Origin: an uncultured Methanosarcinales archaeon
Lineage (GTDB): Archaea > Nanobdellota > Nanobdellia > Woesearchaeales > GW2011-AR9
NCBI GenBank assembly: GCA_964527395.1
Contig: CAZGQD010000003.1
Coordinates: 29,124-93,123 of the forward strand
Direction: 5' to 3'
DNA: 64,000 nt
Part shown: positions 3,460 to 59,903 of the stretch, in pieces
Position numbering within the stretch: position 1 is the first letter of the stretch
Layout: every line of letters begins with the position of its first letter
The notes under the pieces: model-generated
Database searches by the model: none
Seen by the model: only the letters and a program-made list of their open reading frames with translations
What the model was told of the DNA's origin: nothing
Position numbers and translations under genes: made by a program

Positions 3460-6400
3460 TTAATCCAAATCTTTAATACTCTTTAGAATGTCATCGGCTT
3501 TGCCTTTCTTTTCTTTTACTGCAGTTGGGCTTGAACCGCCGTGCCAAGTGAACCTTGGACGCATTTGGATTGGGAAAAGACGTTCGTTGTTATCATCGAA
3601 AAGGATTGCTGCTCCTTTTTGTCTTGGAAGATTGTTTAATTCTACATCAAGACCAGTTCGCATATAACTTTGCATCAGAAGTCCTAGGGCCTCAACATCC
3701 ATTTTAGCTGTAAGTCTGTGGCTTAGGACAATGTCAGATTGAGTCATTACGTCAGTGTGGATCTTTCCTGGCTGTTGTGTTGCTAGTATGAGGGAGATAC
3801 CTGGTTGGCGACCTTCTCTTAAGATTGTGATTAATGGGTCACTTGCAGCAGTTTTACCTTCTCTAGGGAGGAGTTCGTGGCAATTGTGTGCAATTACGCC
3901 ATTTGCTATGAAATTGTGGTTTTGATTTACAGTGATATCGAAGAGTGGTTCAGCTGATTTTGTGGTTCTTTTTTGAATTTTTTCGTAAAAGATATTGTTT
4001 TTTAGTCTTTCTTTAATCCATTTGTCGAAGTTTGGAAAGGATTGGGGCATAGAAACACCACTATTTTTATAAATCCAATCTCTTACTTGGTAACTAGGAA
4101 TATTTAGTTCTTTTGCTATTTTTATTTTTCCCCAGCCAGTTTTTTCTCTGATTTGGAAAGCTTTTTTTCTTAAGTTTTCTCTTTGATTTAAGACGTATTT
4201 TCTGGCTTTAAGGTATTCTAACCATAAAAATCCTGTTTTTTGTTTGATTGAGCAATATCTGTAGCCAACTTTTTCTAAGTATTTTATGGTGTTGTCTACG
4301 CTTTTTGCTAAGGTTATGACTAGTTTAATTGATTTAGTTCCATCTTTTCTGATATTGCCTCTTCTTTGTTTGATTTGGCTGACTTTGATATTAAGGTCTG
4401 AGAAGAGTTTTTTAAGTTGATCAGTGTATTCAACTCCGTTTTCTGTTAGTTCTATGTGTTTATTGCATGAGAATCTGATTGGATTAAAGTCTCCACCCCA
4501 TGTTTTTGATTGTGAAGGAGCCATGCCGTCTGCTCCGAATAATGCTGCTAAAAATTCTGCTTTTTCTTCTTTTGAAGCTTTAGTTAACCATTTTGGAATT
4601 AGCATTTTGATGTTTGTTTTGCTTCCAACTGGAGCCCCTAATTTTTTGAAGTAGTCAAAAGTTTTAGCACTGGCGTTTATTGAGTGACTAGTTCCGTTTA
4701 CTGTTGCAGTTTTTCCTGAGACGTGGGTGATTTTAGAGCTTGTTTTTCTAGAATAGATGTTTGATGAAGTGAAACCTAGTGTTTTTAGGTCTTTTTTGAT
4801 CAAAAGTAGGTCATTTTTGTTTGATTTTCCACTAAAACCAACTTGTTTTGGATTATTACTTAGCCATCCATCTCCGAAAATGTGGCCTAGTAATCTTGCT
4901 CTGATTAGTTTTTTGTCTTGTTTATTTGGGATATTTGTAGGGATTGCAAGTTCTTTAGCATCTTTAGTTTCTTGGAAACCTTTTTTTGTGAATAGTTTGT
5001 GGTCTTCTGTGCATTTTATCTTTCTTCCAGTTTCAGTTGTTAGTTCTATTAGTTGTCTTTTTGGTTTTTTGTAGCTTTTAGTGATATTTTGGAATTCGAA
5101 GTCTTTTGTTTTTTGATTATAGCTCCAGGCTTTTAGTTTTTCTTTATTTTCTACTTTTTTTGTGATTTGTTTTATTGTTAATGTGCCTTGATCTGTAATA
5201 ATTGGGGTGTTTGCAGGGAAACATTCATCTATTGCGAGCCAAACCAAAGGGTCTTGTTGTTTTTCTTTTGTTTCTTTACTAAAATAATGCATTGCTTTGT
5301 CAACACTTTGGAATTCTTCAGATTTTCTGGAAAGCATTCTTTCTTGGAAGAGACGTTTACAGACGAGGCCAGCTACCATGGCTTTAATTTCCCAACCAGA
5401 AGGCATGGTTGCGTATGGACTTACATCTAAAACTGTTACCTGACCACCTTTAACAATGTCTTTTAATGGAGTTCCGTCTTTAGAGAATATTTTCCAGCCT
5501 TTGGCTTTTTCAAATGTGTTAATTACAACAGATTTAGTCACTTTTTGCGCTTCTTTGTCTGCTTTTGTTTGTTCTATTAGGTAATCTATTTCATAAGGTT
5601 CACCTTTATTGTTGGTGTTTAGAACTATTTTGCTGATAAGAACTCCTTCTGCAGTGTTTGATTCAATTTTGAAGGTTTCTAGCCAATCTTCTGGACCAAC
5701 GTCTAAAGGGCTGATTGAGAAAGGAAAGTCAGTAGGAATGCCTTCCTCTTTGTATTTGTAATAGAATCCTGATGGTGTGTAGATTTTCACATCTAGTGAT
5801 TTAGGGTCGAATCCCCATTTTTTAAGGAGTGGGGCATCTTGGTAATTTGGATATTTCATTGTCCAGTAAATACCCATTGTATCGAAAAGGACAATTGAGA
5901 GGTTTTGCTTTACTTCTTTTGGAAGGTCAGCTAAACCTTCAGCGATGGAACCCATGGTGTATGAGTTGTGGACTATAATGTTGTTTGCGATGAAGTTGTG
6001 AGTGTTTGGAACAGTTAAGTCGTATACTTCAAAATTTCCTTCTAAAAGTTCTATTTTGGTGATTTGGTCCCAGATTGCTTCTGAGTTTTGTTTTGATTCT
6101 TTTGGAACTGCAATTTGAGTTTGAATTGGAAGAGTTTGAGCAGCTTGCCAACCTTTTTTTGTTAGAAGTGGGTGCTCAGGAGTTAATTTTATTTGTTTAT
6201 TTGATTTTAGAGTAAGTTTTAGAAGAGTTTTAACTTCTCTTTGATAGAAATGAGTGAAAACAGTTGGGGTGATTTGGTTGTTTTTGTTTAGAGTGAGGAT
6301 TTTTGTTTTGTTTTCTTGGCCTTCTAAATTTTTGATTTTTACTTGTTCTCCACTGTCTAGTTGGATTAAAGTGTCACCATGAAGGCATTTTCCGCTACCT

Positions 6401-6573
6401 CTTTTCCCGCAAAGAAAGATTACGTGGGCTCCTGCAACGTCTAAATAAACTGGATTAGAAAGAGCAGTGGTTTGACCCATCTTTACGAACTGTTTTGCTA
6501 TGAAAATAGTTCCTCTTTTACCGTATTTTTTTACGTCATGTTTACTTCGTCCAATGATCACATCAAAAGCCAT
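3460..6573 (-). CDS. HerA/FtsK-like DUF87 P-loop ATPase interrupted by two inteins (extein about 449 aa)
   Basis: After removing the inteins: N-terminal barrel-like region, Walker A GKRGSGK|S split by intein 1, Walker-B-like LVWLAIDE immediately before intein 2, and a C-terminal LREGRQPGISLILATQQP segment resembling HerA (IAREGRKFGVGLTIVSQRP) and FtsK (GIHLVLATQRP). Confidence 0.65.
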   Translation of the reverse strand: MAFDVIIGRSKHDVKKYGKRGTIFIAKQFVKMGQTTALSNPVYLDVAGAHVIFLCGKRGSGKCLHGDTLIQLDSGEQVKIKNLEGQENKTKILTLNKNNQITPTVFTHFYQREVKTLLKLTLKSNKQIKLTPEHPLLTKKGWQAAQTLPIQTQIAVPKESKQNSEAIWDQITKIELLEGNFEVYDLTVPNTHNFIANNIIVHNSYTMGSIAEGLADLPKEVKQNLSIVLFDTMGIYWTMKYPNYQDAPLLKKWGFDPKSLDVKIYTPSGFYYKYKEEGIPTDFPFSISPLDVGPEDWLETFKIESNTAEGVLISKIVLNTNNKGEPYEIDYLIEQTKADKEAQKVTKSVVINTFEKAKGWKIFSKDGTPLKDIVKGGQVTVLDVSPYATMPSGWEIKAMVAGLVCKRLFQERMLSRKSEEFQSVDKAMHYFSKETKEKQQDPLVWLAIDECFPANTPIITDQGTLTIKQITKKVENKEKLKAWSYNQKTKDFEFQNITKSYKKPKRQLIELTTETGRKIKCTEDHKLFTKKGFQETKDAKELAIPTNIPNKQDKKLIRARLLGHIFGDGWLSNNPKQVGFSGKSNKNDLLLIKKDLKTLGFTSSNIYSRKTSSKITHVSGKTATVNGTSHSINASAKTFDYFKKLGAPVGSKTNIKMLIPKWLTKASKEEKAEFLAALFGADGMAPSQSKTWGGDFNPIRFSCNKHIELTENGVEYTDQLKKLFSDLNIKVSQIKQRRGNIRKDGTKSIKLVITLAKSVDNTIKYLEKVGYRYCSIKQKTGFLWLEYLKARKYVLNQRENLRKKAFQIREKTGWGKIKIAKELNIPSYQVRDWIYKNSGVSMPQSFPNFDKWIKERLKNNIFYEKIQKRTTKSAEPLFDITVNQNHNFIANGVIAHNCHELLPREGKTAASDPLITILREGRQPGISLILATQQPGKIHTDVMTQSDIVLSHRLTAKMDVEALGLLMQSYMRTGLDVELNNLPRQKGAAILFDDNNERLFPIQMRPRFTWHGGSSPTAVKEKKGKADDILKSIKDLD
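3883..5223 (-). mobile_element. large intein (447 aa) with a LAGLIDADG-type homing endonuclease domain
   Basis: Begins CFPANTPIITDQGT after the Walker-B-like DE and ends NGVIAHN followed by Cys. An internal LLGHIFGDGW block matches LAGLIDADG. Confidence 0.7.
5965..6387 (-). mobile_element. mini-intein (141 aa, no endonuclease domain) inserted in the P-loop of the ATPase
   Basis: Begins CLHGDT directly after GSGK and ends IVHN followed by Ser (+1 nucleophile). Flanking extein residues reconstitute GKRGSGKS. Confidence 0.7.
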
Positions 6574-15088: not shown

Positions 15089-15322
15089 TTAAGATCCAAG
15101 AGAGATTTTTAGGGGTAATTTTAGGTTAATTTCTGCTTTTTTTGCGGTTCTTTTTTTGAAACCTAAGATGCCAAATCCGACGGTTTCACCAGTTTCTTCA
15201 TCTATTCTTTCAAAGATTCCTTCTTTAATGTCTTTGACGTAACTTTTTGGGAAGTTTCCTAGATTAATCTCTAGAAAATCTCCTTCTTGATCATAATAGA
15301 TGTGTAAATTACCTTTCATCAT
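15089..15322 (-). CDS. DUF2283-like small protein (antitoxin-like partner)
   Basis: 77 aa with the YYDQEGDFLEI motif characteristic of DUF2283; translationally coupled to the upstream gene. Confidence 0.45.
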   Translation of the reverse strand: MMKGNLHIYYDQEGDFLEINLGNFPKSYVKDIKEGIFERIDEETGETVGFGILGFKKRTAKKAEINLKLPLKISLGS

Positions 15323-15654
15323 TGTATTCTCCTCACAAAATGTACTGTAATTATGAAGCCATGTCCATTTAAGTACTTTACTATGACTTTTAGGTATTTT
15401 GCTTTTGATTGTCTATGCTTATAGTAACGATAATATGAATGAACTTGGTGGTCAAAAGAGTAATTTGTGATTTTTATTGGCTCTTTTAGAGTTTCTTTGA
15501 TAAATTCAAGATTATGTTGGACTTCAGGGTGCAAGGAAAGCATAGCTTTCCTGCACAGGAAATTATTAATTTCCTTGTGTTTTGATAGATGATTCCAACG
15601 TTCTTTTGTTAAGCGAATGAATCTTTTTGATTTGTCAATGATTTTGAATATCAT
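15319..15654 (-). CDS. DUF4258-like small toxin-like protein
   Basis: 111 aa; overlaps the downstream DUF2283-like gene by 4 nt; IRLTKERWNHLSKHKE resembles the DUF4258 'T.HA...R..R' block. Confidence 0.4.
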   Translation of the reverse strand: MIFKIIDKSKRFIRLTKERWNHLSKHKEINNFLCRKAMLSLHPEVQHNLEFIKETLKEPIKITNYSFDHQVHSYYRYYKHRQSKAKYLKVIVKYLNGHGFIITVHFVRRIQ

Positions 15655-15848
15655 GAAAGATAATTTTGGAAGAAGTTATTAATGAATAAAGTGGTTCTGG
15701 ATTATTTATATTATAAAATTTTATTAGGTACAAGAAAATTAACAATTTTCTGTACTGAAAATCTTAGATTTTCATGTACTTGAATCTTATTTTGAAGAAG
15801 GTTTAGCCTAAAGTTTTATTATAGAGCTTTGTTTTTCTTTAGTTAATC

Positions 15849-19804: not shown

Positions 19805-20091
19805 TGAAAATAATTTGATTAGATGAGAAGAAAAAGATTTAGCAATGTTTTGTTCTTGAATTATATAATTCAAGAAAAGAGCACTGTCAGACTTAGTGCA
19901 GGCATAAACCACTCAGTTTGGAATTTTGGTTTGTTTCAAACCAAAATCTGGTGGTTGGATTTAATGTGCTGGATGACATTGCCAGTAGGTGTCCGCGAGG
20001 AAACCTCTTGGGACTTGGTTCGCGTGCTCACCAAGGGACGGCGCTCTTTTCTTTTGAGAATATAGATAAATTTGTAGGTATTGAGATTAAA

Positions 20092-21207
20092 ATGGCAGGA
20101 AAAGCAAGTGCAGGGAAAGGAGCAAAGGTTGATGTAGTAAAAAAGATTCAAGATGTTGCTAAAGGTATCTATGATGATGTTCTTTTGCTTAAAAAGCCAG
20201 ATTTAGTTATGCCAATTAGGTCGCTTAGTAATGTAGCTTATAACGAAAAGGATGGGTATTTTCAGATACTTAGTAAAGTTAAAACTCGTACGCTTTCTGC
20301 TACTACAATCAAGACTTTTGCACAGACTCTTAGAATGATGGGTCTTTCTAAAGATTTGATTAAAGGAAAAGATCTTGCAACTAAAAGAGAGGCTTATTAT
20401 GTTTCCAAAAACTGGGGAGATGCTAGGTTCAAAGAACAGCCGGAGTCAGATACAGTAATGGATGATATCGAAGCTATGATGCGAGTTAATCGTGAACAAA
20501 TTGGCTTTGTACCTGAGGAGAAAGGTGGAGCTGTTGCTGGTGCACTTACAGTTATTGATAAAGATTCAGAGACAGGAGAGAAGCTTGAGATTGATTGTAC
20601 CAAATTTGGTTCAGGTGCTTATTCGGTTCCTTCATCAGTAGAGCATTTATCGTTTAAAACAAAAGCAAAGTTTGTACTTGCTATTGAAACATCAGGTATG
20701 TTTGAGAGGCTCAATAAGCATAAGTATTGGAGAAAAGCGAATTGTATTTTGATTTCAATGGGAGGAGTACCAACTCGTGCTTGTAGACGGTTTATTCGTA
20801 AATTGTCTGATGAAAAGGATCTTCCTGTATATGTATTTACGGACGGGGACCCCTACGGTTTTTTCTCAATATATCGAACACTTCGTGTTGGGTCAGGTAA
20901 TGCAGCTCACATAAATGAGTTCTTTTGTGTACCTAGAGCTAGGTTTTTAGGAGTAACTCCGCAAGACATTGTTGATTATAATCTTCCTACTCATCCTCTT
21001 AAAGATGTGGATTACAAAAAAATTAAGGATGTTTTGAAAAATGATCCATTCTGTAAACAACATAAAGAGTGGCAAAAAGCTCTTGCGCAAATGGTTAAGA
21101 TGAAGGTAAGAGTTGAGCAGCAGGCGTTTTCTGCAAAGGGATTGAACTACGTTTTAGAGACTTATTTGCCTGAAAAGATTGCTAACCCTAAGAAATGGCT
21201 GCCTTAG
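20092..21207 (+). CDS. top6A: DNA topoisomerase VI subunit A (Spo11-type)
   Basis: TOPRIM region VYVFTDGDPYGFFSIYRTLRVGSGN and upstream 5Y-CAP region. Start set at MAGKASAGKG, which follows the GC-rich leader. Confidence 0.9.
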   Translation: MAGKASAGKGAKVDVVKKIQDVAKGIYDDVLLLKKPDLVMPIRSLSNVAYNEKDGYFQILSKVKTRTLSATTIKTFAQTLRMMGLSKDLIKGKDLATKREAYYVSKNWGDARFKEQPESDTVMDDIEAMMRVNREQIGFVPEEKGGAVAGALTVIDKDSETGEKLEIDCTKFGSGAYSVPSSVEHLSFKTKAKFVLAIETSGMFERLNKHKYWRKANCILISMGGVPTRACRRFIRKLSDEKDLPVYVFTDGDPYGFFSIYRTLRVGSGNAAHINEFFCVPRARFLGVTPQDIVDYNLPTHPLKDVDYKKIKDVLKNDPFCKQHKEWQKALAQMVKMKVRVEQQAFSAKGLNYVLETYLPEKIANPKKWLP

Positions 21208-22312
21208 GTTGATTAAAATTGTTTACTAAAGATTTTAATCTTTCTTTCTTGTGAGGATATCTGAAGCCAATTTCTTTTTGATATAAGGCGATTTGAGATC
21301 TGCTTTTTATTTCTAATGTATAATAATCGTAGTTGTTGCTATGTTTTTTGTAGAGGTTGAAATTTATGTTTAGTTGTTTTAGAATTTCTTGGATTTCTAA
21401 TAGAATGCCTTTACTTGATTGAGACAAACCAATTACAGGATATTTTTGTTTGTCAATTTTGTTACACCAACCATCTCCATCGAAGAACCCAATAATAAAT
21501 TGTTTTTTTAGGTTCATAGGAGCTTTTTGGATAAGTTTAGGGATTTTTAGTCTTCCTTTTTTGTATCCTGCTGGCATTTCGAATACGTTGTTTAGAAGTC
21601 TGTGTAACATCATACTGGTAAAAAGAAGTCTATACCATCTTCCATTGTAAACTGTTTTTACATTTGTTTTTAAGTTGAATTCTTGTTTTAGTATGTGAAG
21701 AAGAGTTTCTAGAGTGTTTTTCTTTTCATCAGTGACGGTTATTTCCCAGCGAAACCTTTTTTCTTGTTTGTATGTTAAGTTTATGTTTCTTAAAGAACCG
21801 TCTGCGTATAGAATACCTAGGAAGTATGCTAAATCTTCTGTTAGTGTTTTTGGGATTTTGATTATTAATGGAGAGTTCATTGCTCTGAAAAATTTAGCTT
21901 GTTGGAAGCATTGGTTGTAGAGGTCTTTTTCTTCTTTTTTTGTTTTATGGCATTTTTGTTTCCAGAATTTGAGTAATATTTTGAGTTTTTTAATTGGAAT
22001 AGGATATTTTCCTTTTCTCCATGAGTAAAAAGTGGGAGTTGGTATGATTTTAATTAATTCTTTTTGGAATTGACCTTTAGGAATGTTTTGTTTAAGGTCA
22101 ATGTAGATGTCAGAGATGATATTTGAAATCCCATCTATGCATATTGGACTTTTGGTTACGTCGTCTATTTTTGGGTCAATTAGTTTGTTGAAGTAGTTGT
22201 TTATTTCCATGGTCTGAAGTCTTTGGAAAGCTTGCTTATAAGCGTTGTCCGCGCCTGTCCAGTGGGTTGTGGGTCGTCTTTTTAAGCATAGATTTTTGGA
22301 TTTTGAGCACAA
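21188..22312 (-). CDS. free-standing LAGLIDADG homing endonuclease (two LAGLIDADG motifs)
   Basis: LAYFLGILYADGSL and FIIGFFDGDGW motifs. Convergent with top6A, overlapping its stop codon on the opposite strand. Confidence 0.8.
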   Translation of the reverse strand: MCSKSKNLCLKRRPTTHWTGADNAYKQAFQRLQTMEINNYFNKLIDPKIDDVTKSPICIDGISNIISDIYIDLKQNIPKGQFQKELIKIIPTPTFYSWRKGKYPIPIKKLKILLKFWKQKCHKTKKEEKDLYNQCFQQAKFFRAMNSPLIIKIPKTLTEDLAYFLGILYADGSLRNINLTYKQEKRFRWEITVTDEKKNTLETLLHILKQEFNLKTNVKTVYNGRWYRLLFTSMMLHRLLNNVFEMPAGYKKGRLKIPKLIQKAPMNLKKQFIIGFFDGDGWCNKIDKQKYPVIGLSQSSKGILLEIQEILKQLNINFNLYKKHSNNYDYYTLEIKSRSQIALYQKEIGFRYPHKKERLKSLVNNFNQPKAAIS

Positions 22313-31534: not shown

Positions 31535-31618
31535 TCTTATGAAAATAACTTGTATTTTCAATACTTGCTCTTATGTATCGCAAGCTTTTTAATAAGAACG
31601 TGTTTGTTCTTGTTTTGT

Positions 31619-31761
31619 GGACCTGTAGCCTAGTCTGGATATGGTTAAAATTGGTTTTTTGCTGATTTTTTCTTAGGATTCATATGGCACCAGCCTTCTA
31701 GTTAGCATGAATTTGCTGATAAGACAGCTGGGGGTCGAGGGTTCGAATCCCTCCAGGTCCG
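31619..31761 (+). tRNA. tRNA-Arg(TCT) candidate with two introns, one in the D-loop region and one at 37/38 in the anticodon loop
   Basis: Acceptor ggacctg/caggtcc, U8-A9, T-arm gaggg-TTCGAAT-ccctc, anticodon stem ccagc/gctgg with loop ct-TCT-a interrupted by a ~25-nt insert, and a ~42-nt insert between the D-loop and the D-stem 3' strand. Confidence 0.5.
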
Positions 31762-32320: not shown

Positions 32321-33445
32321 TTGATTCTAAAAGAGACTATGAAAGGAGCAGTATCATCAGTGGACTTGTATGCATTGGTTCATGAAATGCAGTTTTTAGT
32401 AGGATCTAAGCTGCAAAAGGTATATCATCCATCGCGTGAGCTGTTTTTCTTTGAATTTCATTGTCCTGGAAAAGGTAAGCAGATACTTCGAGTGATTCCT
32501 GGGAAGCTGGTTAATTTAGGTTCTGAGAAGCAATCTGTAGTAAAACCAAGCGGGCTTAGTATGTATTTACGAAAATATTTGACTGGTGGTCGACTGGTTA
32601 AAATTTGGCAGAAAGGAACTGAAAGAATATTAGTACTTGATTTTGAAGTTAAGAATGCTGATGAGATTAAAGTATTTCATGTAATTATTGAATTGTTCTC
32701 TAAAGGAAATCTGATCTTTTGTTCAAGTGATTGGATAGTTATGAATCTGCTTGGTAGACAGTTGCGAGAAACTGGAGCAGTTACACATAAGAAAAAATAT
32801 GAGTTTCCACCGGAAAAATTGGATTGGGCGAAACTTGTGTTTAAGGATTTTAAAGAAATATTATTGACTAGTGATAGGAAGAATCTTGCTACAACAATTG
32901 CAGTTGAAATTGGTGTTGGGGGATTATATGCAGAGGAAATATGTGCACGTGCTGAGGTAGATGGAAAAATATTATCTGCTACATTGACTGTTGCTAAAAT
33001 TAAGAAAATATTTTCTGAGTTTGAGAAATTGTTGAAGTCACTGAAATCTGCTAAAGGATATAAATATGGCAAAGAAGTTGTTCCAGTGAAGTTGGTTCAA
33101 GAGAAATATGGAGAACTTGAAACTTCTTTTGAATATTTTTATTTGGCACTAGTATCTGTTAATCCTTTAGTTAAGGAAAGTCCTTATGAGAAAAAGATTG
33201 CTAATGTTTTGCGAATTATTGAAAGACAGGAAAAAGCTGTAGATGATATTGAAGAAGGGATATCTAAGGCAACAGCTAAGGGCGAGAAAATATATTCAGA
33301 ATATTCTAAAATATCTAAGTTAATTGAGCATTGTAATGTAGTTGCTTCAGATAAGGGATGGGCTGAGCTATCTAAGGAGTTAAAAGGACTTAAGTCAATA
33401 AAACAAGTTGATTTGAAGAAGAAAATATTGACAGTTGAATTGTGA
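32321..33445 (+). CDS. NFACT-family RNA-binding protein (archaeal Rqc2/NEMF/FbpA homolog)
   Basis: N-terminal NFACT-N pattern (DLYALVHEMQFLVGSKLQKVY ... LFFFEF), a helical middle region and a coiled-coil tail. Confidence 0.65.
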   Translation: MILKETMKGAVSSVDLYALVHEMQFLVGSKLQKVYHPSRELFFFEFHCPGKGKQILRVIPGKLVNLGSEKQSVVKPSGLSMYLRKYLTGGRLVKIWQKGTERILVLDFEVKNADEIKVFHVIIELFSKGNLIFCSSDWIVMNLLGRQLRETGAVTHKKKYEFPPEKLDWAKLVFKDFKEILLTSDRKNLATTIAVEIGVGGLYAEEICARAEVDGKILSATLTVAKIKKIFSEFEKLLKSLKSAKGYKYGKEVVPVKLVQEKYGELETSFEYFYLALVSVNPLVKESPYEKKIANVLRIIERQEKAVDDIEEGISKATAKGEKIYSEYSKISKLIEHCNVVASDKGWAELSKELKGLKSIKQVDLKKKILTVEL

Positions 33446-39362: not shown

Positions 39363-39695
39363 CGGCTCTGTAGAAAATCTCACTACGTTCGATGGGGGCG
39401 AGGCCAATGTCGAGCAAAGCTCTCCTGGCTTATTTATCCTCAAAGATTTTTCGGGACTTGACTATTCGCCAAGTTTTCAAGAAAAAATAAATGAATAGGC
39501 TCTTCTCCGTGTTCGTTCGTGCCTCACTCAGGTCGAATTGTATAGCTCTTTCGAAGTTTTAGTGATTCGTGGAAACACAAAGTGTTTCCAGACGCATAAT
39601 TCTTTGAATTCTGCATTCTGCATAGACGCCCCCCATACATACTTAGAAATGGAACATTTCTGGTACCCACTTCGTTAAGGTTTTCTACAGAGCCG
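39363..39695. repeat. 333-bp element with 15-bp perfect terminal inverted repeats CGGCTCTGTAGAAAA; a MITE-like element or a large structured ncRNA
   Basis: Termini are exact reverse complements. Internal long-range complementarity gatgggggcg/cgccccccat. Shares cgagcaaagctctc with the element at 961-1189, and aataggctcttc...ctcaggtcg plus its termini with the 144-bp element at 57294-57437. Confidence 0.5.
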
Positions 39696-39702
39696 TGTTT
39701 CT

Positions 39703-39979
39703 GATGCTAGGTCTTTGTTCTGGCCTTTTGCGATAATTAATGCAAAGTCTTTGGCGCGCTTGCCTCCTCACTGGCAATTACATTATGAAATTACACCAAC
39801 AACAAGCATTTTTGTTCATGAAATAGAACAAAAATTATTGCGTAGTTGTTTAGACCTGCGGTAAGTCTGGCCAAGCGCCATAGGACTTTTATTATAAAAT
39901 CGCAAAATGATGAATTTGCTAAAATTCAGCGTCTGGAAAATGATTTTTCCATAAAGGCCAGCTTAAGTACCCAGCATCG
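39703..39979. repeat. inverted-repeat copy A (277 bp), ~98 percent identical to the reverse complement of 59585-59860
   Basis: Direct base-by-base comparison shows only about 4 mismatches. Contains the TGGAAAA...TTTTCCAGACGC hairpin and the aattgccagtgaggagg motif. Confidence 0.85.
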
Positions 39980-41680: not shown

Positions 41681-41859
41681 TTTTTTTTTTAAATTAAATT
41701 TTATAAATAAAGTTCTATTTTAAGGTTCTAAGATGATTATTGAACCAATAGATACTGCTGTAGATGCTTGGATTCTGGAAGTAAAGAGGGTTTTTCTGAA
41801 GATCTGTATGTGTATATGAGTTTGGATCTTTGGTTTGGTGTTCTTTGTTGTTTTCTTTT

Positions 41860-42030
41860 TCAATTTAGAGCTTATTTTGGCTGATTTAGAGCAAAAGAAG
41901 GTTGTTTTAAGCTATTTGGGCGAAAAGAAGGCTGTTTTGGCCGATTTAGAGCAAAAGAAGGTCATTTTAGGGGATTTGAGGGAAAAGGAGGCTAATTTGG
42001 GCTTTTTAGAAAGGAAGGTTTTTATTGTGT
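41860..42030. repeat. about five degenerate ~30-bp tandem repeats (gatttagagcaaaagaaggtYRttttRRg...), same family as 12288-12500
   Basis: Direct reading; ORF 41835-42050 is a translation of the repeats and is considered spurious. Confidence 0.6.
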
Positions 42031-42043
42031 TGTTAGAGTTTAG

Positions 42044-42844
42044 TTGTTAATGGTAGAATTAGTTACTTTTGTTCTGGTTGTTTTTGTAGGTCTAATTACT
42101 GGTTTTGTTGATTCAGTTATTGGAGCAGGAGGATTGATATCAATACCTTTTTTGATTTTTACAGGAGTTCCGCCACAAGTTGCTATTGCAACAGACAAAT
42201 TTGGTCTGCTTGGGCATATATTTGGGTCTATCCCTAAGTTTTGGAAGGAGAAAAAGATTGTTTGGAAATATGTCCCTTTGTTGTCTTTGTTGGGGATAAT
42301 TGGAGGGTATATTGGAACTAAGATAATAATTAGTGTGAATGAGGCTGCTTTGACAAAAGTTGTTGGGTTTGCTATCTTGTTTTTGTTGCCAGTTGTGTTT
42401 TTTAAGAAAGATTTAGGTTTGATTAAAAAGAAAGTTTCTAATTTGAAGAAAATAATTAGGTACTAGGAAATCGAGGATTTCCTGTACAGGAAAGCTTCGC
42501 TTTCCTTGTATCCGTTGTATTTACTTGCAATGATTTTTGGAGCGTCTATAAGTGCAGGATCAGGACCTATAGTGTTATTGTTTCTAGTATCTTTTTTTGG
42601 TTTAACTTTTATTCAAGCAAATGCAACAGATCAAATATCTTGGTTTTTTTTGTCTATTGTATCTTTGATAGTGTTTGGAATCAATGGTTTGATTGATTTT
42701 TGGCTTGGAATTGCAATATTGATAGGAATGAGTATTGGAGGTTACTATGATGTGAAAGTTGCTGTTAATAAAGGGAATGTTTGGGTTAGAAAGGCATTTG
42801 TAGTGGTTGTGGTATTGTCTGGGTTGAAATTGTTGTTTTTGTAG
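42044..42844 (+). pseudogene. TauE/SafE (DUF81) family anion permease interrupted by a single in-frame TAG at 42464-42466; pseudogene or read-through/recoding candidate
   Basis: ORF 42044-42466 (N-terminal repeat, GAGGLISIPFL) and ORF 42506-42844 (C-terminal repeat, TTG start) are in the same frame, separated only by TAG plus 39 nt. The combined product would be ~265 aa, the usual TauE length. Confidence 0.55.
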
Positions 42845-44838: not shown

Positions 44839-45566
44839 GTGATTTTTTTGAAATAAAGAGTTGTGGTGTCAGTTGTTGTTGGGGTTAATATGTAAGCATT
44901 TTCTGTTTTTCTTAATTCTACATGGAATAAATTAAGTTTTCTTCTTGCATCAGGAGTTTCTGTGAAGGTTGATTCAATTGAAATTTGTCCTGTTTCTCCA
45001 ATCAATGGAACTCTAGAAACAAAACAAAGGTGGTGAGGAACTCCTTTTGGTCTTTTACTACTTGCATTAGCGTAGCTAACTCCATCAGGGAGAGCAGATC
45101 TCCAGTGTTTAAGAATTACTTGATAGTGTCTTTCAGGATTTTTATTAGGATTTATTGGAATAACAACAGAAGTAAGGTTAGGGGATAGTTCAAGATAAGC
45201 AACTGTGTCAGGTTGACTAAGGGTTCTTTGATTTCCTGTAGCTATTTCATAAAGAGTTTCATTTGAAGTTGTTATTATGTATCCATTCATTTCAGTTAAT
45301 ATTCGTGATCCAGGAACAGTATTTGGGTTTGTTCTTCCAGGAATTATTTGGTTTTCAACGGCAGTAGAGATTGCTCTAGCCATTATGTCTTTTTGAGTTA
45401 TAAAAAGAAGATCAGTTAATCTTCTTCCTTGAGCATTTTCTGAATTAATAGAATGACCAGTATCATAATTGAAGTCTACTCTTTTTTTTCTTCCTCTTGG
45501 AGGACTAGTAGTTCTTACAGAAGGAAGAGAAGCTCTTCCTAATCTAGGTAAATTTGGTAATGGCAT
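44835..45566 (-). CDS. hypothetical protein
   Basis: 243-aa ORF, Thr/Pro-rich, no motif recognised. Confidence 0.35.
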   Translation of the reverse strand: MPLPNLPRLGRASLPSVRTTSPPRGRKKRVDFNYDTGHSINSENAQGRRLTDLLFITQKDIMARAISTAVENQIIPGRTNPNTVPGSRILTEMNGYIITTSNETLYEIATGNQRTLSQPDTVAYLELSPNLTSVVIPINPNKNPERHYQVILKHWRSALPDGVSYANASSKRPKGVPHHLCFVSRVPLIGETGQISIESTFTETPDARRKLNLFHVELRKTENAYILTPTTTDTTTLYFKKIT

Positions 45567-45654
45567 AATGTATATGCTGCATATGGTGCTTTTAAAAGGG
45601 TTTTGGTTGGGATTTTGGAGTAGATTTATAAAAATGAGCTGTATTTTGCTTATT

Positions 45655-46033
45655 GTAGATTACGCTAGGAAGCTGACGGTATCTTTATTGATGCTGAGGA
45701 AGGTCCGCCCACCGTAAATGAGCCTCCTTTTTAGGAGCTGGAGAAATTCAGGGCTCTGGAACAGAAACGACACGTCCTAAGTCTAGGCACTTAAAAACAC
45801 TTTGTGTTTTTAGGGCCAGAAAATCATATGATTTTCTTGGAATGATATGTGTGAAGCTTTGCGTGAGTGAAGGGAGTTAATCACTTGACTGTTTGAAACT
45901 TAGGGAACGATGAAACGGCGAAACCGCTCTGGTGCAAGTCTTTGACGCTTAGTCGAATGCTTCCAAATGCTTATCGGTAGTACTTTATTGTGCTGCTTTG
46001 GAGTATACAGAAGGTGGCCTATTGCGTGACTAC
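45655..46033 (+). ncRNA. rnpB: RNase P RNA candidate
   Basis: GC-rich island in an AT-rich region. 5' block GAGGAAGGTCCGCCCACC resembles P4 GAGGAAAGUCCGGGCUCC, internal ACAGAAACGACACG is present, 3' block ACAGAAGGTGGCCTATTGCG resembles ACAGAACCCGGCUUAUCG, and the terminal gcgtgactac/gtagattacgc can pair as P1. Confidence 0.55.
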
Positions 46034-46624: not shown

Positions 46625-46762
46625 TTTTTTTAGTTTTCTTTGCAAAGGGTTTATATATAAATAGGTGGATTTGTTAGTTTGATTATGGCATACATGGAAA
46701 CTAAGAGTTTCCAGTCGCCATTTTTCCTTTGAGGATAAAAATTTAAGGTTAGTAAAGAAAAA

Positions 46763-48263: not shown

Positions 48264-48602
<339 letters not shown>

Positions 48603-53658: not shown

Positions 53659-54294
53659 TTAAGAATCTTCGTTTAAAAGGAGCCTTAGGATCACTGCGGC
53701 GCTCCGATCTTCTTTGATTTGGTTGTTTAATGTGAGTTTGAGTAGTTCTTCTTTTGTTTTCCACTCTATTTTGATGCATGAAAATCCAAGATTTTCAGCA
53801 CAGGAAATCTTTGATTTCCTTGTGTTTTCACCATCTTCTAAGGATTGCTCTTTTTGATTGTCTTGGTCAACTGTGATTAGAAAATAGTAGAGGTCCCAAT
53901 CTATAGTAGTTCCACACTTGGAGATGTGGATAAGTTCTGTTTTGATTGGAGTGTATCCAGTTTCTTCTTGGCACTCTTTGATTGCTGCTGCCTTGGATGC
54001 GTTTTTTAGTTGGGTTTTGTTGTTTCTGATTTGTTTATAGTTTTCTAGTTTGTCAAAGACTTTTCCACCTGGGAGTCTATAGTCGTAATCTTTGATTTCG
54101 TATCTGAATTCTTTTGTGATTAGGTATTGGTTTTGTTTGTTTTTTATTATGAGTCTGACACCTGGAGCACGTCTGGCAATTTCAAAAATGACTTTCCTAT
54201 CTTCAAGTTTCATAGGGATTTTTACAAATTCTAGAATTCTGCCTGAAGCGATTATTTCTTCTGGTCCATCTTGAGTCTGGATGTTTGATTTCAT
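53659..54294 (-). CDS. NUDIX hydrolase
   Basis: Nudix box GGKVFDKLENY...AAIKECQEETGY (GX5EX7REUXEEXGU pattern). Confidence 0.75.
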   Translation of the reverse strand: MKSNIQTQDGPEEIIASGRILEFVKIPMKLEDRKVIFEIARRAPGVRLIIKNKQNQYLITKEFRYEIKDYDYRLPGGKVFDKLENYKQIRNNKTQLKNASKAAAIKECQEETGYTPIKTELIHISKCGTTIDWDLYYFLITVDQDNQKEQSLEDGENTRKSKISCAENLGFSCIKIEWKTKEELLKLTLNNQIKEDRSAAVILRLLLNEDS

Positions 54295-59584: not shown

Positions 59585-59860
59585 GATGCTGGGTACTTAA
59601 GCTGGCCTTTATGGAAAAATCATTTTCCAGACGCTGAATTTTAGCAAATTCATCATTTTGCGATTTTATAATAAAAGTCCTATGGCGCTTGGCCAGACTT
59701 ACCGCAGGTCTAAACAACTACGCAATAATTTTTGTTCTATTTCATGAACAAAAATGCTTGTTGTTGGTGTAATTTCATAATGTAATTGCCAGTGAGGAGG
59801 CAAGCGCGCCAAAGACTTTTTACCAATTATTGCAAAAGGCCAGAACAAAGACCTAGCATC
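59585..59860. repeat. inverted-repeat copy B (276 bp), partner of 39703-39979
   Basis: Reverse complement matches copy A with about 4 mismatches. Confidence 0.85.
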
Positions 59861-59903
59861 ATGGATTTGAAAATGTTTATATACGGCTGGACTTTATTTC
59901 TTT

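Follow-up and report, generated by a model that had tools for sequence, protein, structure and literature searches.

In IS200/IS605 systems, the target and the element end are recognised by pairing with a short guide adjacent to the foot of a hairpin. Related palindromic repeats of the REP/REPIN type are outlined in one account as 20–40-nt palindromes with an adjacent conserved tetranucleotide, often occurring in pairs (PMC3733652). Rickettsia palindromic elements (RPEs) are dispersed, non-coding palindromic repeats that occupy intergenic sites as well as open reading frames (ORFs); in the latter they keep the reading frame and contribute a peptide at sites compatible with the protein fold (PMC10969869). 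Short mobile coding inserts that are bypassed in translation are known from Magnusiomyces mitochondria (PMC5009743), and a review of archaeal recoding describes such hopping only for phage T4 and yeast mitochondria (PMC8211752).

Within the 64,000-nt stretch of Woesearchaeota DNA analysed here (hereafter, the window), a gene of the TauE/SafE permease family carries an insertion made of a 46-nt double-hairpin repeat, which includes an in-frame TAG (Table 1). The preliminary description had read this gene as two same-frame DUF81/TauE permease halves parted by the TAG, the downstream half opening at a TTG 39 nt past it, and both points were borne out (ORFs 42044/42050..42466 and 42506..42844). 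The N-terminal half matches Pfam PF01925 (TauE) at 4.4e-22 over profile positions 2–113 and the C-terminal half at 6.5e-14 over positions 138–237, while the fused halves reach 1.3e-37 and 130 bits (cutoff 32.6) over positions 2–237. The profile covers both four-helix repeats, which places the gene in the TauE/SafE family (PF01925, TSUP). The break is located exactly between the two Pfam-detected repeats, with the insert in the linker that joins them, at the codon for the first residue, a Tyr, of the fifth transmembrane segment. Downstream of it, the C-terminal half is a clean 112-codon open frame, and gene callers predict both halves as genes.

A total of 91 TauE homologs were found, and 14 sequences, most of them 248 aa long, were aligned with the interrupted gene. 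The 16 columns (48 nt) that hold the TAG and both hairpins are missing from all 14, and the flanks align without gaps. Orthologs had been proposed as the place to look for a sense codon at the TAG; they have no codon of any kind there. Precise removal of the 48 nt brings the Tyr codon TAT (42509–42511) directly after Arg AGG (42458–42460) and yields a homolog-like sequence again. The full insertion consists of the element core plus one copy of a host dinucleotide TA, such that the last codon of the N-terminal half, TAC (42461–42463), is host TA followed by the first base of the element, C. In a relative (L042), the uninterrupted site reads GGG TAC TTT, with the dinucleotide present once.

Table 1. 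Coordinates of the interrupted TauE gene, of the element within it, and of the other element copies in the window
Feature	Position	Strand	Evidence and remarks
TauE/SafE N-terminal half, first 4-TM repeat	42050..42463	+	138 codons, ATG start; Pfam, gene call, homolog alignment
Left copy of duplicated host dinucleotide TA (from Tyr codon)	42461..42462	+	48-nt periodicity; uninterrupted site in L042
46-nt double-hairpin element core, C-T-hp1-GTAC-hp2-T-G	42463..42508	.	16-column homolog gap; covariance model R1 70.8 bits; 15-copy architecture
In-frame TAG, element position 2 (T) plus first two bases of hairpin 1	42464..42466	+	
Hairpin 1, AGGAAATC-GAG-GATTTCCT	42465..42483	.	8 bp, 3-nt loop, perfect
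Central tetranucleotide GTAC (X2)	42484..42487	.	Middle dinucleotide complementary to flanking duplicated dinucleotide
Hairpin 2, AGGAAAGC-TTC-GCTTTCCT	42488..42506	.	8 bp, 3-nt loop, perfect
Right copy of duplicated dinucleotide TA	42509..42510	+	Start of Tyr codon TAT (42509-42511), which would follow Arg AGG after precise 48-nt removal
TauE C-terminal half, second 4-TM repeat	42512..42844	+	Open frame ending TAG 42842-42844
Second copy	15532..15577	.	TG duplicated 15530-15531 and 15578-15579; R1 72 bits
Fourth copy	15731..15776	.	TA duplicated; intergenic
Third copy	53777..53822	.	TG duplicated 53775-53776 and 53823-53824; R1 71.6 bits

The stop itself is a real allele. That position 42464 was missequenced or misassembled, one of the options raised in the preliminary description, is effectively excluded, since 10 contigs of independent origin (several ENA, JGI and Logan assemblies, from different samples) encode an identical 138-aa product formed by the N-terminal half and ended by the TAG; among them is a strain that carries other SNPs. 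A sense-codon or uninterrupted allele was likewise absent from ~15 billion proteins, based on exact-match queries with 7 sense-codon variants and 2 excised forms, and the protein clusters of the two halves contained no members besides themselves. TAG is also a genuine stop elsewhere, as had been stated with top6A as the example: it ends 21 of the 61 called genes, including top6A (19966-21207). Genome-wide reassignment of TAG was rejected on this basis, as TAG ends a third of the genes.

Stable hairpins had been noted directly 3' of the TAG. These are real and beyond chance by RNA folding (−27.2 kcal/mol for 42455–42530, z = −4.67, with 0 of 200 shuffles equally stable), and are better described as two perfect hairpins, for which a single long hairpin is an alternative fold; the stop codon lies partly inside the stem of hairpin 1. 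The window contains 6 occurrences of the motif GGAAA-N7-TTTCC where 0.13 would be expected, and 4 of the complete element (a 52-nt architecture) where the expectation is ~0.07. A covariance model (R1) scored the four window copies at 65–72 bits and everything elsewhere at 28 bits or less. The general plan opens with C-A (C-T in the TauE copy) and closes with T-G; between these lie two 19-nt hairpins, the first of them perfect, joined by G-YR-C, and a duplicated host dinucleotide stands on either side. The second copy lies inside a 111-aa ORF (15322-15654, minus strand), where it is read in the element frame used in TauE, with AAG in place of TAG, and forms an exact 16-aa insertion relative to 11 homologs. 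The third lies inside a Nudix ORF (53662-54294, minus strand) in another element frame, which is open, and is again an exact 16-aa insertion relative to 11 homologs, one of them at 71% identity; the uninterrupted site in a relative (L041) reads GAC ATT, with a single dinucleotide. The fourth copy occupies the spacer of a divergent gene pair whose starts are at 15654 (minus) and 15849 (plus).

Beyond this genome, the architecture recurs in metagenome contigs and in no fewer than four further Woesearchaeota genomes. Copies in the other genomes lie between genes (0 of ~13 intragenic), against three of four intragenic copies in this window. About 8 kb of extra contig sequence beyond the window held no further copies, and a pattern scan of viral_contigs returned 0 matches. 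Rfam searches at gathering and permissive thresholds yielded only sub-threshold, miRNA-like hairpin noise, and our literature search retrieved nothing matching a palindromic in-frame element or mRNA intron in Woesearchaeota or DPANN. This element, which recurs in other Woesearchaeota and whose internal tetranucleotide matches its insertion site, is thus without a description in the literature searched.

Alignment of 15 copies indicates at which level the palindromes may act. Hairpin cells are paired in 98.8% of cases, 8 of 16 pairs show two-sided changes, and G-U pairs occur in 0 of 240; this Watson-Crick-only covariation points to pairing of a DNA-level palindrome on both strands. Loops are variable and conserved bases all fall within stems, while bulges are single nucleotides. 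In all 15 copies, the two middle bases of X2 are the complement of the flanking dinucleotide (TA with TA, TG with CA), so that X2 is able to pair with either element end or to bridge both. This complementarity is analogous to the guide pairing of IS200/IS605 systems, and if the tetranucleotide does reflect guide-directed insertion, the element would be an unusually minimal system for that mechanism. We infer that the element is MITE/REP-like and acts at the DNA level. Terminal inverted repeats are present in 15 of 15 copies (outer arms C-A-WGRAAA... / ...TTTYCW-T-G), the flanking YR dinucleotide is duplicated at insertions and single at the uninterrupted sites in L041 and L042, and non-coding copies are dispersed (4 in 64 kb, besides 4 other genomes and metagenomes). 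No MITE-related or other transposase was detected among the Pfam hits for the genes of the window (lists for called genes and 10 extra ORFs). As in REP/REPIN systems (RAYT, IS200/IS605-type Y1), the palindromic units measure 20–40 nt, have a conserved tetranucleotide next to them, and occur in pairs. Unlike in those systems, the tetranucleotide is G-YR-C (GTAC, GTGC or GCAC) rather than GTAG or CGTC, the dinucleotide is duplicated, three of the four window copies are within ORFs although those of other genomes are extragenic, and the window contains no Y1 transposase gene.

With respect to its host genes, the element resembles RPEs, being found both between genes and in ORFs, keeping the frame, and adding 16 residues in predicted loops. 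It differs from RPEs, which are bacterial and ~150 bp long, in its archaeal (Woesearchaeota) host, in its 46-nt size with two perfect 19-nt hairpins, in its 2-nt duplication, and in an internal tetranucleotide whose sequence varies together with that of the target; that the insert is translated is, moreover, a prediction here. The element and its duplication always amount to 48 nt, and the host frame is therefore kept. Insertions abut highly conserved residues in all three genes, and precise removal of 48 nt restores the conserved sequence in each. In AlphaFold models, the inserts of the Nudix protein (residues 157–172) and of the 111-aa protein (27–42) fall in low-pLDDT loops, sites predicted to be structurally tolerant, which fits a picture in which insertions are translated and those that the protein cannot tolerate are lost; a PDB sequence search with the Nudix protein gave no matches. 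Read in the TauE element frame, the copy in the 111-aa gene gives KEINNFLCRKAMLSL; peptides predicted from the open copies are KEINNFLCRK for the 111-aa protein and TRKSKISCAENLGFSC for the Nudix protein. About 37% of element frames would be open by chance, and two open frames among three genic copies represent no significant excess. Within 64 kb of a small archaeal genome of the DPANN type, three proteins have thus received a 46-nt element that always adds exactly 48 nt, and if its inserts are translated, it would be a source of both new protein loops and gene inactivation in reduced archaeal genomes.

For TauE, we consider it most likely, with a probability of roughly 0.6, that a nonsense codon within the element truncates the permease, i.e. 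that the gene is broken rather than specially decoded. The repeat has inserted into a Tyr codon, with the host TA duplicated and the frame kept at 48 nt; insertions of this kind can be translated as 16 extra residues, the form in which the two other genes of the window carry it. Position 2 of the element is A in 11 of the 15 aligned copies, G in 3, and T only in the TauE copy, a substitution, probably A to T, that would have changed AAG, the first codon made up entirely of element bases, to TAG. TAG ends genes normally in this genome, and ribosomes therefore most likely terminate once the first four-helix repeat is complete, leaving the second one unmade, or made in trace amounts via leaky read-through or re-initiation, and the permease inactivated or truncated. 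Among the options of the preliminary description, a recent nonsense pseudogene hence comes closest to the evidence, except that the damage consists of the inserted element together with a single base difference inside it, and not of a point mutation in TauE sequence. Like an ordinary nonsense pseudogene, the locus has one in-frame stop in a recognisable gene and faster change downstream; unlike one, its stop lies inside a mobile-type insertion rather than in gene sequence, and its downstream frame is intact. What looks like a recoding signal is the mark left by a very small palindromic repeat, and the two TauE ORFs are best annotated as one interrupted gene, neither as a recoded gene nor as two separate genes.

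The C-terminal half shows signs of relaxed constraint, judging from sequence divergence. It has diverged more than the N-terminal half (a difference in identity, N minus C, of +4.9 points, against −5.7 in homolog pairs), and of 8 private changes at otherwise invariant columns, 6 are in this half, including G235D. A diverged strain (L003) differs by 4 synonymous changes and 1 non-synonymous change, all in the C-terminal half, a pattern that looks like purifying selection; these changes are clustered, with 5 in 183 nt against 2 in ~1.8 kb upstream, which also fits an imported tract. All contigs compared for dN/dS are at least 98.8% identical, with only 5 informative sites and a possible recombination tract, and the outcome is equivocal. 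Several observations weigh against the proposed reading of element insertion and truncation, namely the open C-terminal half, the purifying-like L003 pattern, the conserved residues flanking the insertions, the gene 60-like cis features of the TauE copy, the intragenic bias seen in this window only, and the lack of a transposase in it.

Known structures that stimulate read-through begin several bases after the stop. The TauE stop instead lies inside a stem, which is one of several reasons why programmed read-through, also put forward in the preliminary description, is not supported. Decoding of the UAG by a near-cognate or suppressor tRNA, aided by the structure, would yield a 264-aa TauE with a 16-residue insert; the frame is indeed open across the insert and the C-terminal half, stable structure follows and partly surrounds the stop, and the product would probably be tolerable, as the corresponding frame of the 111-aa gene gives KEINNFLCRKAMLSL. 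One report also describes seemingly conserved in-frame stops as common in prokaryotic genes (PMC7918605). In TauE, however, all 14 aligned homologs are gapped at the site and thus have neither a stop nor any other codon there, and the double hairpin is a dispersed repeat that also occurs in intergenic DNA, in two stop-free genes, and between genes in other genomes, so that it was not selected for recoding. Moreover, TAG terminates a third of the genes (21 of 61), with no sign of avoidance, and searches of the window, one portion of the genome, yielded no suppressor tRNA with a CUA anticodon. Overall, read-through appears unlikely, and the hairpins are the element's own palindromes rather than a signal evolved for recoding of the TauE stop.

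Similarly unlikely is a functional split gene, in which the two four-helix repeats would be made separately and assemble, the second by re-initiation at TTG 42506 or ATG 42530. The position of the break exactly between the Pfam-detected repeats, the two intact ORFs predicted by gene callers, and the 4 synonymous against 1 non-synonymous strain differences are all compatible with this arrangement. Yet neither start is preceded by a TATA-like or Shine-Dalgarno-like signal in a survey of 62 genes, only 1 of which uses TTG, and starting at the ATG would lose an invariant Tyr. The C-terminal half has also diverged faster than expected, and independent pairs of half-size homologs were not seen among the TauE hits.

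All of the cis features given for T4 gene 60 are found in the TauE copy: a UAC, a UAG, a hairpin, and a UAU 48 nt on (PMC8211752). A ribosome hopping at this site would carry peptidyl-tRNA-Tyr off UAC (42461–42463), over the element, to re-pair at UAU (42509–42511) and resume at CCG, producing a 248-aa TauE; we regard this as very unlikely, and assign equally low credence to the element being an archaeal counterpart of the gene 60 insert or of the mitochondrial byp elements. The parallels are a ~50-nt coding insert, matching Tyr codons 48 nt apart, a stop right after the take-off codon and within a stable hairpin, and, for the byps of Magnusiomyces, mobility. The return to a homolog-like sequence upon 48-nt removal and the open C-terminal half, with its mostly synonymous strain differences, would also fit. 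However, matched codons follow automatically from the duplicated dinucleotide (UAC/UAU in TauE, CAC/CAC in the 111-aa gene), and the Nudix copy has none. Likewise, a stop in the A site combined with a hairpin is specific to the TauE copy, the other two genic copies having sense codons, and the T that creates the UAG is unique among 15 copies. Additional arguments against hopping are the presence of copies in intergenic DNA, the Watson-Crick-only stems of an element symmetric on both strands, which suggest selection at the DNA level and not at the mRNA level, the signs of relaxed constraint in the C-terminal half, and the restriction of hopping, in the review cited above, to phage T4 and yeast mitochondria.

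Precise excision, either intron-like at the RNA level or from single-stranded DNA, with X2 splinting both ends, would leave all three mRNAs without the 48 nt. The complementarity of the X2 central dinucleotide to the flanks in 15 of 15 copies agrees with this scheme, as do the positions of the insertions next to invariant residues and the restoration of conserved residues by 48-nt removal in all three genes. Nevertheless, the three insertions are in predicted loops or the central linker, a placement unneeded if they were removed, and the element lacks G-U pairs, Rfam matches, and a ribozyme-like conserved core, its loops being variable and its conserved bases confined to stems. Precise excision is accordingly also very unlikely, and the chance that TauE is served by either hopping or precise excision remains low. 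The wider proposal that a mobile double hairpin is neutralised by hopping or splinted excision, with the TauE, Nudix and 111-aa proteins all made without the 16 residues, is doubtful. If the inserts were bypassed or excised, this would represent a new kind of archaeal gene expression tied to a self-spreading element; to our knowledge, neither hopping nor such excision has been reported in an archaeon.

Archaeal bulge-helix-bulge (BHB) introns, such as that of cbf5, are defined by a pair of 3-nt bulges, on opposite strands, with a 4-bp helix between them. The TauE insertion resembles them in being a short insertion in an ORF with strong local structure, whose removal restores the protein. It differs in that this arrangement is absent at the needed spacing, the bulges of the element being single nucleotides. 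An archaeal BHB intron was rejected following a scripted scan of 42400–42570 (canonical and relaxed) and a hand search, as there was no 48-nt candidate and no pair of cleavage sites 48 or 24 nt apart, and other candidates would delete conserved sequence. The scan did return weak AU-rich candidates of 56, 87, 126 and 128 nt that span the TAG, as well as a 27-nt candidate located downstream, clear of the TAG.

On sequence grounds, the interruption of the TauE/SafE permease gene is real and is caused by a 46-nt double-hairpin element. As the preliminary description had it, the gene consists of two ORFs in one frame, separated by an in-frame TAG and 39 nt, and the second of these opens at a TTG. 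Both halves belong to the permease, matching Pfam PF01925 at positions 2-113 (N half) and 138-237 (C half), with 1.3e-37 for the fused halves. When these fused halves are compared with homologs, mostly of 248 aa, all 14 aligned sequences show one exact 16-column gap (KKIIRY(stop-EIEDFLYRKASLSLY)PLYLLAM in TauE vs KKIIGYF----LYLLVM in a homolog), and the TAG and both hairpins thus lie inside a 48-nt insertion; since every homolog is gapped there, none offers a sense codon at this position. The sequencing error initially considered is excluded, because the exact 138-aa TAG-terminated product occurs on 10 contigs, drawn from several samples assembled by ENA, JGI, and Logan. The identity of these contigs to the window is 98.8% or higher throughout, and the stop is seen in one population only. 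Among about 15 billion proteins, we found no sense-codon or excised TauE allele, and neither half shares its protein cluster with any other sequence. Just upstream, a 70-aa ORF (41838-42050) whose stop overlaps the TauE ATG carries a 30/60-nt tandem repeat (41873-42000) with LADLEQKKVVL-type decapeptide repeats.

The element is present in four copies in the window. The motif GGAAA-N7-TTTCC was observed 6 times (0.13 expected), perfect hairpins with stems of 8 bp or more 24 times (5.7 in shuffles), and a fixed architecture at four loci vs 0.07 expected by chance. In order, this consists of tetranucleotide X1, a single base, a perfect 19-nt hairpin (hp1), tetranucleotide X2, another hairpin of 19 nt (hp2), a further single base, and tetranucleotide X3. 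Each hairpin has 8 bp, a 3-nt loop, and the stem WGRAAANN, and an element covariance model gives these loci 65-72 bits, with at most 28 bits in the rest of the window. The Nudix copy sits between an invariant G-E and an invariant I, and one of the homologs lacking it is 71% identical. The 111-aa gene and TauE read the element in a common frame (KEINNFLCRKAMLSL vs stop-EIEDFLYRKASLSL), AAG in the former being TAG in the latter; the Nudix gene uses a different frame of it, likewise open. Frame statistics on the genic copies are uninformative, given that about 37% of element frames would be open by chance alone.

Window coordinates of the TauE ORFs, the element copies, and further selfish-element ORFs
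Feature	Position	Strand	Remark
TauE upstream ORF	start TTG 42044 or ATG 42050, to TAG 42464-42466		N half
TauE downstream ORF	TTG 42506 to TAG 42842-42844		C half
Element copy, TauE gene	42460-42511 (X1 to X3)		
Element copy, 111-aa gene adjoining DUF2283 gene	15529-15580		exact 16-aa insertion vs 11 homologs
Element copy, spacer between two divergent genes	15728-15779		
Element copy, Nudix gene (53662-54294, minus)	53774-53825		exact 16-aa insertion vs 11 homologs
1037-aa ORF	3460-6573	minus	intein/Hint domains
Free-standing LAGLIDADG ORF	21188-22210	minus	end overlapping top6A end

The anatomy of the element was derived from an alignment of 15 copies. The outer bases of X1 and X3 are freely variable, their inner bases are C and G, respectively, in 14 of 15 copies each, and their middle dinucleotides (TA, TG, or CA) are identical within every copy. 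This dinucleotide is single in uninterrupted relatives, with GAC ATT in one (L041) vs AAC A[...]C ATC in the window at the Nudix site, and GGG TAC TTT in another (L042) vs AGG TAC [...] TAT CCG at the TauE site. The simplest reading would be a 46-nt element, C-A-hp1-G-YR-C-hp2-T-G, which together with a 2-nt target duplication adds 48 nt to the site. A surprise lay in X2: in 15/15 copies its two middle bases are the complement of the flanking dinucleotide (TA with TA in 4, CA with TG in 11, the opposite polarity in 0). X2 can therefore lengthen either hairpin by 3-4 bp, leaving one bulged base, and could in principle also bridge both element ends; we infer that this pairing is used in target choice or end recognition.

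Several features suggest that the structure operates in DNA. Across the 15 copies, the two hairpins are 98.8% paired, with two-sided changes in 8 of 16 pairs, above all controls, and no G-U pair in 240 hairpin cells. While the search pattern set part of the stems, it left the inner two pairs and X1/X3 free, and these unconstrained inner pairs are 100% Watson-Crick. The element model also scores nearly equally on both strands. The structure thus looks like a DNA-level palindrome, which might fold on each strand as a hairpin or cruciform or else provide a symmetric site for a protein, and mRNA structure under one-strand selection does not fit this pattern of symmetric strands without G-U pairs. 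Hopping could be proposed from the TauE copy, which formally shows the gene 60 features (UAC, UAG, hairpin, UAU 48 nt on), and yeast mitochondria do have short mobile inserts that are bypassed. Yet the matched codons arise automatically once the target is duplicated, the gene 60 features are missing from the other genic copies, and the structure has the behavior of a DNA element; hopping or excision therefore seems improbable. No BHB intron motif was found at the needed spacing.

The fold following the TAG is indeed stable (-27.2 kcal/mol, z = -4.67, equalled in 0/200 shuffles), but its proposed role as a read-through signal did not stand. Stop-free copies carry the same hairpins, no ortholog has a stop at this position, and TAG is, as first described, a genuine terminator elsewhere, being the stop of 21 of the 61 genes called, top6A (19966-21207) among them. 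The hairpins do not signal recoding; leaky read-through may occur as a side effect. The TAG itself combines element position 2 with the two bases that open hairpin 1. Among the other 14 aligned copies, 11 have A and 3 have G at position 2, T being confined to TauE; as it is complementary to a mirror-position T in most copies, the TauE copy breaks the element symmetry. In the most economical history, an in-frame insertion initially reading AAG would have acquired an A-to-T change. Of the earlier suggestion of a nonsense pseudogene, the loss of function is retained, a truncated or inactivated permease being the favored consequence (probability roughly 0.6), whereas the stop is a one-base variant inside a 46-nt element.

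Evidence on whether the C half is still used points both ways. Its 112-codon frame is intact, and the one diverged contig (L003) departs from the window at 4 synonymous sites and 1 non-synonymous site, every one within the C half, both of which speak for continued use. Counting against use, these five changes fall within 183 nt, with only 2 in 1.8 kb upstream, which suggests an imported tract. In addition, the non-synonymous site is Asp in the window strain vs Gly in L003 and all homologs, 6 of 8 private TauE changes at otherwise invariant columns are in the C half, and the C half is less homolog-like than the N half (+4.9 points); pairs of homologs show the reverse, with higher conservation in the C half (-5.7 points, sd 5.3). 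A functional split gene is possible, but initiation signals are missing: neither C-half start is preceded by a TATA-like or GAGGT/GGTGA-like signal of the kind present ahead of other genes. A TTG start is used by 1 of 62 genes.

In the open copies, AlphaFold models based on homolog alignments place the insert in loops, a long one at residues 157-172 of the Nudix protein (pLDDT <50 at 159-166) and one at residues 27-42 of the 111-aa protein (pLDDT <50 at 27-37), and the TauE insert falls in the linker between two four-helix repeats. Such tolerant sites, in this small sample of three, would be the expected outcome of selection on translated insertions, and Rickettsia palindromic elements show a similar placement (PMC10969869).

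Pattern scans detected the same architecture in four Woesearchaeota reference genomes (CAYHUT01, JAGVYR01, PCYA01, and JABMOA01) and seven metagenome contigs. Copies in the four genomes are intergenic, often within divergent promoter regions, and none is inside a long ORF. Some share longer identical flanks (L007, L015, and L016 from CAYHUT01; L011, L014, L017, L027, L030, and L031 from JAGVYR01 and related metagenome contigs), and L014 has a third hairpin in register; the unit can thus belong to larger repeats or arrays with more than two hairpins. GC-rich look-alikes occur in Roseicyclus genomes (L008, L012, L021, L023, and L025) and a few other bacteria, with the same layout recurring in several of the Roseicyclus genomes (GGAAAAC..GTTTTCC-GCAC-GGGAAAAC..GTTTTCCC), and may represent either an unrelated REP family that happened to match the search or a bacterial analogue. 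As far as we searched the literature, the element family has no prior description, and it outranks the interrupted gene in interest, being ultra-small, always in-frame, equipped with a target-matching center, and found in DPANN archaea.

Partial or degenerate hairpins were also observed. The RNase P RNA (45656-46032) has a ~100-nt expansion vs 26 in the Rfam consensus, with an element-like pair of hairpins, TAAAAACAC-TTT-GTGTTTTTA and AGAAAATC-ATAT-GATTTTCT, around 45787-45842 (27.9 bits with the element model); a degenerate element copy may thus lie within the gene for a structural RNA. Element-like single or degenerate hairpins (10-21 bits) lie just upstream of Sec61-beta (46690-46734), the RNase P RNA (45517-45573), and a tRNA (31535-31578). 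An ORF-poor ~1-kb stretch (about 39.0-40.0 kb, no ORFs of at least 50 aa) contains single element-like hairpins at 39570-39590 and 39639-39700 and the first copy (39702-39978) of a 277-nt inverted repeat with 98% identity, the other being at 59585-59861.

The window is archaeal, with an archaeal RNase P RNA, an intron-containing tRNA, and 34.5% G+C, and homologs of its proteins carry the names Woesearchaeota or Nanoarchaeota. The Rfam tRNA match (31619-31761) spans 143 nt, implying a long intron or introns; ARAGORN reported no tRNA across the window. Immediately upstream of a minus-strand gene (48264-48551) lies a perfect (TTAG)13 microsatellite (48551-48602). The intein/Hint and LAGLIDADG ORFs are further selfish elements, and a 374-aa NFACT_N-domain ORF (32321-33442), whose match runs from position 2 to 359 of the 456-position profile, is a further candidate for a truncated or split gene.
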